Shown: one piece after another, positions 40,227 through 62,518 of the stretch
How the letters are laid out: every line of letters begins with the position of its first letter
How positions within the stretch are numbered: position 1 is the first letter of the stretch
From: Eledone cirrhosa
Taxonomy: Eukaryota
Assembly: GCA_964016885.1 (NCBI GenBank)
Contig: OZ024753.1
Location: 30,504,001-30,568,000 of the forward strand
Reading direction: 5' to 3'
DNA length: 64,000 nucleotides
Program-made: the position numbers and the translations under genes
The notes under the pieces: generated by a model
Seen by the model: only the letters and a program-made list of their open reading frames with translations
Told to the model about the DNA's origin: nothing
Databases searched by the model: none

Positions 40227-40402
40227 CAAAGGCTAAGGTGTCATCTCTCCCGGTTATTTTGGATGGCCATTGATTCTTAAGAGCTCCTTTGCCCTTTGAC
40301 AGGTTTTGTTTTTAGTCCTGCAGGATGTCCAAAATTACCCTCCTCACCAAGAAACCTTTTGTGGGGTTACCAGTTTAGTCGCCAACGACCCGACCATGAG
40401 AC
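40227..40402 (-). mobile_element. RTE-derived family 1, 5' part only (left module of composite copy 1)
   Basis: Matches 54089-54264, including the same end point and the aacgacccgacc variant. Confidence 0.75.
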
Positions 40403-40420
40403 ATACATACATACATACAT

Positions 40421-43400
40421 CAGTCAGTCAGTCAGTCAATCAACGCGATCAGTCGCATATTTTGGCGTGGGAGACTATTTATTAAATTTAAGATGAATAC
40501 TATCTCCGACAGTAATCCCACAACTACAGCCAGGTTGAATAACTGGTTATTCTTCTAACTATCCCTTCTGAAGACACCTTTTATTCGAATTCGTAGAGAT
40601 ATCCGACTAAATACGTAATTCATTTTACAAGGATTTGCTACAAACAGCATGGCTGAACACAACATCAACAAGAAAATTAAGGAAGTATCGAAGACAAATA
40701 ACAAAGAAGGTAATCAAACTTTATTCAGCTGTAGCTACAGAAGAAACCGAAATTATAAATCGCATTTCTCTTGGAGTTGCGAACTTAATAATGATTTATT
40801 TAATTGTACTAAAATGGCAAAAAGCAATCCCTCCATTGGCTATATGAATAGAATGAAGCTACACTGGGACGAAATGCACCCAGAGCTAAATTATTTCTCA
40901 GCGAAACAATTACGCCAACAAGCGACGTTTGTTGAACGTAAAAATAAGATAAATATTATTAATTGTAAGTCCCCCACAACAAACATGGAATCAACAACAC
41001 GTGCTACAGATCGCCATGCTACTAGACTTCCTAGCAGCCAGGTCGAACAGCGCCTTGAAACAACTATGCCTGTACCATCTAAGTCTACCTCGAATGCTGG
41101 GGAAAACACTATCGATAATAATAATAATCGAAGAAATAATAATAATAATCGAATAAATGTGACACCACGTATACCATCCGAGTCTACCTCGACTGTTGTG
41201 GAAAATACTATCGATAATGATAATCAAAAGTATAAACAATTGAAAATTTCCCTCAACGAAATCTTCCAGAGAGAAATTAACTCATGTATAAATATCTCTC
41301 TGGCTGAACATGTTAAAATGACAATGGTGAATAAAAAACCAAATAATGAAATACTACGTGTTATTGACGAAATAGGGGATGAATATTTACGACGGATAAA
41401 AACCCCAACATTTTGGCAAATCAACGCCTGTTTATATGCCTTAGCAATGACAGTGAAGCATTATCTTGGTGATAGCAGAGATATTAATAAGAACAAAACA
41501 CCACCAAAAATACCATCATATATAACTAAAATAGAAAAAAAGAGTGCTGACCTAGGAAAAAACATAGGACATGTGACAATGCTCCTTACATGCAAACAAA
41601 CACAAAAAAACCTCACTCCTCACCAACAAAGAGTGAAAAATAAAATAGAGACGATGTTTGGTAACAGTAGAACCAGAACTCTCCAATATAAGCTGATCAC
41701 CCTCAAACAAGAATTGAGAGCTGTTAGCGAAAAACGCCGATACCTGAAGAAGGTAGATGAGAGAAAAATGCTTAATAAAAGATTCAGACGAAACCAAACA
41801 TCAGTCTATAGAGATATGAAGGGCAAAATAATAAGTGTCACTGAGGCCCCATCCCAGAAAGACACAGATTCCTTTTGGAGAAAAATATGGGGTGAAAAGA
41901 AGAATTTCAACCAAGATGCAGTGTGGCTAAGAGAAATCTGAAAGAACTATTGCTCCTACACTACAACAAAAACATACGAAATAAGTGAGGGTACCCTTGA
42001 GACTGTGATAGGAAAACTCCAAGATAAGAAAACACCAGGAAGAGACATAATTGTCGGCTACTGGTACAAAAAACTAATATTCTATCGGAGGTATCTTACT
42101 GACCTCTACCAACAAGTTCTTAAGGGAGATACACTTATACCAGAATGGTTGACATTAGCACAAACGTTACTGGTCCCCAAGAACAAAGACACCCACTTGG
42201 CAAAAAACTACCGACCCATTGCATGCCAAAACCTGATGTATAAGATGTATACAGCCTGCCTGAACCTATTCCTCCAAGATCACTGTGAAAATAATATCAT
42301 CATCACAGATGAACAAGCAGCTGGAAAGAAAAGGGTTTGGGGATGTGCTGAACAACTCCTAATCAACAAAACTGCGATGTCCGAGGTGCGACAACTTAGG
42401 AGGAATATGAGTACAGTCTGGCTGGAGTACAAGAAAGCTTTCGATTCTGTTCCCCACTCTTGGATGATAGAGGCCCTCCAACTTGCTAAAGTCCCAGACA
42501 TTATTGTCAGAGTCATAGAGAGGCTGTCTTCTTCTTGGGCTACTATCCTAAGGTTAAAGACAGAGAGGGAGGACTCTATTTTCACTGATAAAATAAAATA
42601 TTGCAGGGGTATATTTCAGGGGGACAGTCTCTCTGTGATATTGTTCATCTTGTCATTAAACCCCTTGTCCTTTCTGCTCAAGAAATGTGAGGGATACATC
42701 ATTGGCTCACAGGAGGACAGAAATACGAACCTAACCCATAACTTCTTTGTGGACGATCTGAAACTCTATGCCAAGAACATGGATGGGATGAAGAAAAATC
42801 TTGACCTGGTTACAACGTTCTCAAAGGATATAGGAATGGAGTTTGGCCAAGATAAATGCTCATACATGACTGTAAAGCGGGGGAAAACAACAACCCAATC
42901 TAACAACATTGTCATCAATGGTCTAACTGTTTCACCGATATCTGATGAGGACTGCTACAGATACCTGGGGGTAGATGAGAACATATCCTATAATGGTATC
43001 TGTAATAAAGAACGCGTAACCAGGGAATACTACACCCGATTAAGAAAGATCTGGTCATCGGAACTCTCTGCGCAAAACAAAACAGTGGCTCACAATGTGT
43101 TTGCTGTGCCTGTCCTAACACCAACGTTTGGAATACTCAATTGGACGATAGACGAAATCCGAGCAGTTGATGTTGGAACTCGAAAAATACTGAACAACAC
43201 CGGAAACTTCCACATCAACAGTGACATAGACCGCCTTTACTTGAAACGTAAGCAGGGAGGCAGAGGCCTAACATCAGTCCAGACAATATTTGAAAGTCGC
43301 ATCATATCTCTCCGACAACATCTACGAACCTCGAAGCGTAGGAGCCCGCTTCTCGAGCAAGTCTATCTGCATGAAACAGATAAGATCATGAGAGTTGGGA

Positions 43401-61400: not shown

Positions 61401-62060
61401 ATAAATGTAGGCTATGTAAAACAAAGATCGAGGATGTAAGCCACATTGTTGCCAGCTGCGAACGAATGTCATCTCGCTACTACCTCCCAATGAGACACGA
61501 TGGGATAGCTAGAACCATCTGGAACGCACTTCGGAAAACAAAATTAACAACAAACGAGGAAGAATATATTGAGACAGATGGCACTAAGGAATACTGGTGG
61601 AACCTGAAAATAAAAACTGTCACCAAATTAAAGCACAACCGGCCTGATATTGTAGTTTGGGACCACACATTGAAAACGTGTTCTGTTGTGGAGATCATCT
61701 GCCCACTTGATGTAAACGTTGTCAGAAAAATACAGGAGGAGGAGGACATCTACGGACCATTGATGAGGAGTTTACAAATCCAGTATCCAAGATACACCTG
61801 TAGCTTCATACCCATCATTATTGGAGCTACGGGTTATATACCAACCCGCTTGGACCAAAGTATGACTGAACTTGGATTTGCGGACAAAAAACGCAGCTCC
61901 CTAATTCATAGTCTACAAATGGCTGCGATAGCTGGCACCTTCAAAATTTGCAAAACATTCTTGCGATTCAAGGGATGACAATTTCTTTTCTTTTACAACC
62001 TTGCCACCAGGAAGGTGGCCGGTCAAAAAAATATACTCGAAATTAAGAGAAAGAGATAAC
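58414..62060 (+). mobile_element. R4/Dong-clade element, family B, copy 2 (full length, disrupted ORF 58491-61978)
   Basis: Starts cagtcg. Myb-like QWSYELN...GFMQRLKTLW, then RT, CRLC knuckle (about 61405) and RLE. Followed by (ATAC)n at 62059-62146. Confidence 0.92.
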
Positions 62061-62518
62061 ATACATACATACATACATACATACATACATACATACATAC
62101 ATACATACATACATACATACATACATACATACATACATACATACATATTCTCAACGCTTAAAAAGCCAAAAATTAGGTTTCGTACATTATATATATATAT
62201 ATATATATATATACTACGTTAAGGTATCAAAACATATTTAATATGTATGATGATGATTATATATATATATAGAGTAATAATAATAAACGTGAAGATTAAA
62301 ATCAGAAGATCCCGTTAAGAATGAAAGCAGCGATTCTTTGCTTAAACTTTAATCTGTTGTGTGTGTGTGTGTGTGTGTATATATATATATACACACACAC
62401 ACAACTTGAACCCTCTTCCTGGTGGAGGCGTACGGGAATCGTCGTCGTGACATACGGTGTGGCTTGGGCATTTGAAACTTAGTGTAGCCAATCCCTCTTC
62501 AACCATATATATATATAT

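Follow-up and report, generated by a model that had tools for sequence, protein, structure and literature searches.

The stretch of DNA analyzed here (the window) comprises 64,000 nucleotides (nt) of Eledone cirrhosa contig OZ024753.1 (GenBank assembly GCA_964016885.1, positions 30,504,001 to 30,568,000 of the forward strand); all coordinates are those of the window. It contains two copies of a train of three modules, denoted R, A and B. A and B are retrotransposons without long terminal repeats (non-LTR) that encode a restriction-like endonuclease (RLE), and R is a short element on the opposite strand. Copy 1 occupies 40227–47945 and copy 2 occupies 54090–62146, in identical orientation and 14 kb apart. 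The features are listed below, with open reading frames abbreviated as ORF.

39359..39921, minus strand: full-length reference copy of R, about 565 nt, non-coding, with its 3' microsatellite tail on the left
40227..40400, minus strand: R fragment of copy 1, the 5'-most 174 nt, cut short by 9–12 nt; left edge at ACA/(CA)n
40401..40436, plus strand: spacer (ACAT)5(CAGT)4 of copy 1, identical in copy 2
40437..44530, plus strand: A1, full-length RLE non-LTR retrotransposon; ORF 40649–44309, predicted Myb-like domain at about 40727–40954
44531..44574, plus strand: (ACAT)11, tail of A1 and left target of B1
44575..47887, plus strand: B1, second RLE family, without 324 nt that are present in copy 2
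47888..47943, plus strand: (ACAT)14, tail of B1 and right end of copy 1
53686..54262, minus strand: R of copy 2 with its own tail, (ACAT)5, at 53686–53705; 5' cut position as in copy 1
54263..54298, plus strand: spacer (ACAT)5(CAGT)4 of copy 2
54299..58400, plus strand: A2, full-length A with stops and frameshifts of its own; CCHC knuckle at 57584, RPD...E...P.D endonuclease motif at 57839
58401..58415, plus strand: (ACAT)3ACA, tail of A2 and left target of B2
58416..62058, plus strand: B2, ORF from Met 58491 to 61978 (broken), Myb-like domain 58500–58724 (predicted three-helix)
62059..62146, plus strand: (ACAT)22, tail of B2 and right end of copy 2

In a BLAST search of the window against itself, the two copies appeared as a pair of direct repeats, 40226–44549 with 54089–58415 (96.7% identity) and 44574–47945 with 58739–62116 (95.7%). 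The left flanks (3.3 kb against 1.5 kb compared) had no similarity, and the right flanks, compared over 1.45 kb, gave a single 25-nt match (E = 0.006). An earlier note on this DNA had described an 8-kb train present twice with unrelated flanks, and these comparisons bear it out. Its account of the outer limits also held: the similarity ends at the terminal ACAT tract on the right, and the left edge of copy 1 lies inside R, at an ACA microhomology with a (CA)n tract, so that copy 1 is without the 3' part of R. Removal of a copy had been expected to leave a plain microsatellite, but what remains when copy 1 is excised is a compound (CA)n/(ACAT)n tract. No target-site duplication could be read for copy 1, both ends of which lie in AC-type repeats. 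The sole N gap in the window is at 21546–21745, and none lies between or adjoining the copies.

The junctions had been described as shared, and this was correct for one of the two. The R–A junction, CATGAG-(ACAT)5-(CAGT)4-CAATC, is common to both copies, and the 147 nt across it (40370–40516) are without a single difference. The A–B junctions are unlike: 58416–58739, 324 nt of B with the start codon and all of the predicted Myb-like domain, are absent from copy 1, and the boundary tract is (ACAT)11 in copy 1 versus (ACAT)3ACA in copy 2. As the modules are also unequally diverged (see below), the copies do not behave as one uniform unit. The shortening of R relative to the 39921 copy had likewise been noticed, as a cut of about 10 nt. 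R is indeed 9–12 nt short in both trains, but because R lies on the minus strand the cut is at its own 5' end; of the 12 nt, three are microhomologous to the tract. The shared cut is thus a 5' truncation of R by 9–12 nt at an ACA microhomology.

A and B are two distinct single-ORF RLE non-LTR retrotransposons that end in (ACAT)n and are R4/Dong-like by anatomy. Both contain an RVT_1 domain (E = 2.6e-23 for A and 4.5e-24 for B), and their best matches in the PDB are structures of R2 retrotransposon proteins. A C-x2-C-x8-H-x4-C knuckle was read from the ORFs of both, with a zf-RVT match that scored under its cut-off, and the RPD...E...P.D motif of A2 at 57839 has its counterpart at 61640 in B2. 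The two proteins are 55% identical over 478 residues of the reverse transcriptase (RT) region. The ORF of A1 is interrupted by a stop codon at 41939 and by the loss of 5 nt at 43834; as no stop or indel on the list for A occurs in both copies, the copies point to one ancestral A reading frame. Both B copies seemed to be out of frame at an A-run (46931–46940 and 61076–61084); this was not counted, as the run is a hot spot for homopolymer slippage and the reads were ambiguous.

The N-terminal domain was modeled as three helices with a predicted local distance difference test score (pLDDT) of 84. The top structural matches of the model were Myb, SANT and trihelix domains with Z scores of only 5.0–5.8, among them Zeste (Z = 5.8, root-mean-square deviation 2.5, 63 residues aligned). 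Searches with Foldseek, Pfam and PDB profiles returned nothing significant for this domain, and a check for zinc fingers found no CxxC within the first 100–120 residues. The ESM Atlas returned eukaryotic clusters without names (0.90) and Myb_Rap1 (0.84), which we take as a lead only. Among 7999 candidates scored, 878 were relatives of A. One of the few named ones is an Argonauta hians protein (54%), whose N-terminus matches that of B from the first Met.

This anatomy fits the R4/Dong clade (Dong, DongAg, DongBg and the Octopus Dong-R4), which is described in PMC7998251 as having a single ORF with RT and RLE, a Myb/SANT-like N-terminus without zinc fingers, and a microsatellite target; in A and B the Myb/SANT-like N-terminus is predicted. 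It is also the anatomy by which the R2 group is defined in PMC3636483 and PMC4640811. HERO is compatible as well, and the tree described below is made of loci without family names.

At the 5' end of A, no ribozyme was matched in Rfam, where the only matches were microsatellite-driven or below threshold. A descriptor of our own for ribozymes like that of hepatitis delta virus (HDV) had no match in A, although this is a weak test without a positive control. The first 180 nt of A folded no better than shuffled sequences (z = −1.59), and an alignment of A with five relatives at the 5' end was poor (mean column identity 49%). The same unvalidated descriptor gave three strong overlapping matches, and none in 20 shuffles, at about 143–235 in the 5' untranslated region (UTR) of one ACAT-bounded relative (L004).

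R is probably a bipartite RTE derivative, judging from its anatomy. Bipartite non-autonomous RTE derivatives (Bov-A type, RTESINE) are, like R, short and non-coding, with a microsatellite tail and many 5'-truncated copies, as reported in PMC5786205 and PMC6007223, and R has the 3' microsatellite tail and the polarity of 5' truncation expected of them. The RTE origin is unconfirmed, in that a 77-residue frame in R gave no protein match. There are five R copies in the window, two of which (3990–4198 and 49505–49923) retain the tail (left) side only, and a related plus-strand copy at about 50230–50545 ends in (ATGT)n. The tail-side-only copies and this plus-strand relative indicate that R reads on the minus strand, so that its tail is the left end and its 5' end faces that of A. 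The plus-strand copy belongs to another family related to R, one that shares the (ATGT)n tail and is also represented on the minus strand at 39943–39975; that piece lies inside the ACAT tract adjoining the 39921 copy of R, where it forms another small train.

ACAT repeats mark the boundaries throughout. All seven perfect tracts of at least four ACAT units in the window are located at element ends, and all four copies of A and B are bounded by ACAT tracts. Four sequencing runs were compared with 53490–62075, with the run depths used as gradients and not as copy numbers. R, A and B are each a separate abundant family in the reads. In run X1, summed contig depth rises from about 50–65 thousand to 677 thousand along A from 5' to 3' (about tenfold or more), and from 13 thousand to 541 thousand along B (about 40-fold), the gradient that separate, mostly 5'-truncated families would give. 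From the 3' end of A, 110 contigs run into the ACAT tail, with varied flanks (agreement 0.49). Loose contig ends were seen at 58415, and in three of the four runs B extends upstream of 58416 (X1, X4 by 547 nt and X5 by 284 nt). Since the family contigs continue for at least 547 nt upstream, the 5' UTR of B is truncated in copy 2 too.

Other combinations of the same modules occur elsewhere. Among the 15 joints listed, four run from R to truncated A, two from a B tail to truncated A, and one from an A tail to A; a further table of joints adds one more R–A row and one more B–A row. Two R–A rows have ACAT letters between the two sides. The module orders at other loci are therefore R|A, B>A and A>A.

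A scan of metagenome contigs for relatives yielded 33 loci, and the ends were inspected for the 18 with long matches. Ten of these carry one of the two repeats (ACAT)n and (ACTT)n: two (L004 and L005) have ACAT on both sides and eight have (ACTT)n at one or both ends. Of the other eight, three have AAT or AAAT and five have none. The tree was built from 26 rows, namely the 24 loci with at least 200 aligned residues together with A and B; the other nine loci were left out. A, B and all ten ACAT/ACTT loci fall in one clade (100/100), apart from the AAT/AAAT loci, on a long branch of its own, and within it B is sister to L004 and L005 (95/90). An exact 25-nt pattern from the 3' end of A had no match in the metagenome contigs. 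In one relative (L007, 3748–3901) the (ACTT)n of the tail gives way gradually to (TGAC)n and (GACG)n, which resembles the compound (ACAT)5(CAGT)4 spacer before A. A further element, L010, carries (ATA)17 on the left and (CTTA)7 on the right and may have inserted into a compound microsatellite.

The presence of ACAT at every boundary points to serial insertion into a shared repeat, and the trains were most likely built in this way, upon a single microsatellite target. In the order we propose, R would have inserted first, on the minus strand, followed by a full-length A into the ACAT tract beside the 5' end of R, and then by a 5'-truncated B into the ACAT tail of A. We consider this stepwise order of R, A and B very probable. 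Every insertion leaves a new target, so trains can form in any order. In the earlier note, A and B were not recognized as microsatellite-targeting retrotransposons, an identity that alone accounts for ACAT at each module boundary.

The two copies differ at 11 of 173 positions in R (6.4%), 74 of 4067 in A (1.8%) and 73 of 3279 in B (2.2%). A and B do not differ from each other in divergence (p = 0.24), whereas R differs from A and B together (Fisher's exact test, p = 0.001). Over 174 alignment columns, 11 differences separate the two R pieces, and their comparisons with the unrelated copy at 39359 give 9 and 10; at position 40239 it is copy 1, and not copy 2, that agrees with the 39359 copy. 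All 11 R mismatches lie within 40239–40369. Of 133 changes, 37 are synonymous (expected fraction 0.255, p = 0.30), as in neutral divergence. An apparent sign of purifying selection between the copies (crude omega 0.69, p = 0.04) was rejected, as it disappeared after correction for transition bias (0.89, p = 0.30).

Shared descent was examined through variants that are rare in the families, defined as near-private sites at which at least 98% of X1 depth carries a letter other than that of copy 2. Of the 40 variant rows listed, 35 fall where both copies align, and five were dropped because they are absent from copy 1. Among these rows, copy 1 also has the near-private letter of copy 2 at four of 15 sites in A (chance about 1e-6), with one more in a gap, at one of five in B (chance about 0.03), and at the single site in R not at all. 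At 54591, the family letter is missing from only about 19 of 64,738 X1 depth units, a rarity that suggests a private duplicate rather than a subfamily, with the caveat that contigs drop rare variants. A was thus copied after its insertion, and B probably likewise. The single ancestor that had been supposed for both copies is upheld for A and, more weakly, for B; the pair would go back to a single inserted copy, with about 2% of neutral divergence accumulated since then.

How the second copy arose is less certain. We favor, at roughly an even chance, local gap repair at the DNA level between R homology and an ACAT tract, with no RNA intermediate. A break would have occurred at an (ACAT)n tract beside a different copy of R, with the neighboring train serving as the repair template. 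The left end would have paired in R homology and switched to the train within the last 31 nt of R, synthesis would have passed through the spacer, A and B, and the right end would have been resolved in the ACAT tail. Such repair with a crossover at the end of R would copy the junction and leave the two R bodies different, and a crossover near the end of R is what the clustering of all R mismatches in 40239–40369, followed by 147 identical nucleotides, suggests. The duplicate is nearly private, lies only 14 kb away and is in the same orientation, all of which speaks for a process acting locally on DNA. The net outcome would be equivalent to a tandem duplication followed by a deletion between ACAT tracts. 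Copy 1 would later have lost 324 nt of B in a deletion starting at the ACAT tract, and the loss of the 3' part of R in copy 1 would be a separate event.

Several points weigh against this account and the insertion history that precedes it. The repair step is itself only an inference, and it needs two extra events, the 324-nt loss and the R truncation in copy 1, for which models based on RNA or microhomology account directly. The excess of differences in R rests on 173 nt and was noticed post hoc; the divergence of A and B shows mild overdispersion (p = 0.054), and with this allowed for, the tail probability of the excess becomes 0.006; and the 31 identical nucleotides at the end of R could be due to chance (p = 0.08). 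The read comparison omits 54256–54310, the R–A junction. The joints considered are 15 of 616 and the variant rows 40 of 738, and the joints are stacks of restriction-site-associated DNA (RAD) reads with one or two starts, one of them (53847) at a cut site, and may include chimeras. Only two groups of accessions supplied the ACAT/ACTT relatives, which are not independent.

Among the other explanations, a local microhomology-mediated duplication by template switching, in which the copy-2 locus served as template for the R fragment, A and B jointly and the breakpoints fell at ACA in the (CA)n tract and in the ACAT tail, is unlikely. One event would here yield the proximity, both boundaries, the shared junction and the shared variants. 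Divergence is also raised around the A–B junction, to 4.2% in the 3' UTR of A and 3.8% in the first 525 nt of B. Under this model, however, about 3.5 differences would be expected in R where 11 are found (p = 0.001, or 0.006 with overdispersion), and the excess would have to be fortuitous or stem from local hypermutation or from a later conversion by another copy of R; the R pieces are as far apart as unrelated R copies, and 40239 matches the 39359 copy. The earlier note had instead proposed that R, A and B were retrotransposed as a single read-through RNA, carrying antisense R, reverse-transcribed from the 3' end of B to give a 5'-truncated unit. We find this improbable, also in a variant in which an A–B RNA with a few nucleotides of upstream flank annealed to R at the target, for which there is a precedent in R2 with co-transcribed 28S sequence (PMC3774820). 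The right end at the B tail and the left end at a microhomology are as such an RNA would leave them, although DNA-level models expect both too; B2 is without its own 5' end, so that an A–B co-transcript would bear no B processing signal; and the weak ribozyme test at the 5' end of A detected nothing that would cut R off. R4 and Dong are reported to self-cleave at the 5' junction, however (same source), R is about three times as diverged as A and B, and the A–B junctions differ by 324 nt, though a later deletion could cause that. The composite also looks nearly private, and it seems improbable to us that, in a large genome, a lone copy made from RNA would insert as close as 14 kb to its donor. 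Microsatellite-mediated ectopic duplication, which had been mentioned as an alternative to the RNA, comes nearer to the evidence.

It is more doubtful still that only the end of R and A were duplicated and B inserted twice independently into the ACAT tail of A, or that two older trains were partly homogenized by gene conversion. In its favor, the two B copies have lost different lengths of their 5' end and begin directly at an ACAT tract, which is how target-primed insertions would look; these families commonly form trains, and only one of five rare B variants is shared. That variant, a G at 59835/45689, is nevertheless absent from 17,727 X1 depth units and from 416 of 423 X21 reads, A and B are equally diverged, and the depth at the 5' end of B is about 50 times below that at the 3' end of A, so that most A copies are without a long B. 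An assembly artefact, either an uncollapsed haplotype or a mis-join, is very improbable: no contig piece among those listed spans a whole copy and the window does contain a gap, but the flanks are unrelated, each copy has stops and indels of its own, and the gap is neither between nor beside the copies.

If gap repair is correct, it could be part of a homing-like mode of spread. A widespread R4/Dong-like lineage targeting (ACAT)n/(ACTT)n would share its tracts with opposite-strand RTE derivatives; its endonuclease would cut ACAT beside an R copy, and repair from the neighboring train would copy 8 kb of dead retrotransposons without reverse transcription. We regard this only as a tentative idea, unlikely as it stands.

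Tandem arrays of target-specific retroelements are known from TRAS and SART at telomeres, and ectopic repair between repeats is a known kind of event. Microsatellite-targeting RLE elements and stacked arrays are already known kinds. In contrast to the stacked arrays, the trains described here involve three families on both strands of a dispersed microsatellite, and one train was duplicated locally. Transduction of 5' or 3' flanks by long interspersed nuclear elements (LINEs) also brings flanking DNA to a second site with the right end at a tail, whereas here the modules are unequally diverged, one internal junction differs and the copy is local. Utopia, as described in PMC4640811, makes tandem insertions in U2 genes, each leaving a target, much like the ACAT trains. 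Five recently active families of Dong-R4 with 1129 recent insertions are reported for O. vulgaris (PMC13282606), and Dong-R4 is described as abundant and recently active in Octopus (PMC13282606, PMC9115989). The target of Dong is given as (TAA)n in PMC7998251 and PMC3812793, while the repeats bordering A, B and their relatives are (ACAT)n or (ACTT)n; A and B are therefore not Dong in the strict sense, and the relatives bearing AAT or AAAT fall in another clade. Waldo, of the R1 clade, targets ACAY microsatellites, nearly the same repeat (PMC3812793). Its endonuclease is of the N-terminal apurinic/apyrimidinic (APE) type, in contrast to the C-terminal PD..D/E type of A and B, and a common target would be convergent. 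In the literature searched we found no ACAT or ACTT target for an RLE element and no such mixed trains, though Kojima and Fujiwara 2004 and Repbase Reports, which lay outside the search, may record the target.

If this interpretation holds, it adds a tetranucleotide target to the RLE retrotransposons, with two families 55% identical on one repeat and relatives on the one-base variant ACTT. The ACAT/ACTT series would be suited to asking whether the N-terminal Myb-like domain sets the target, a question raised for R4/Dong in PMC7998251. Mixed trains of several kilobases in microsatellite-rich genomes would be explained without composite RNAs, and a shared junction by itself would be no proof of co-transposition. 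The elements at this locus are dead, and no host function is implied.

The window contains other repeats. An AT-only satellite of 11.3 kb (19365–30706) holds the gap of 200 N and a non-repetitive island of 1083 nt (22622–23704), which has no second copy in the window. A 58-bp minisatellite at 12090–12790 has 12.1 copies with 96% matches. Self-complementary segments (84–96%) are found at 62515–62778, 34320–34508, 32556–32700 and 33168–33294, the one at 34.3 kb including a TA run. Lastly, an interspersed repeat of about 215 nt, SINE-like (resembling a short interspersed nuclear element) and often arranged as head-to-tail dimers, gave 18 BLAST matches at 78–86% identity apart from the match to itself, with sites that include 1058–1274, 5544–5953, 14253–14687, 15214–15484, 17537–17755, 35558–35766, 53071–53485 and 63720–63869.

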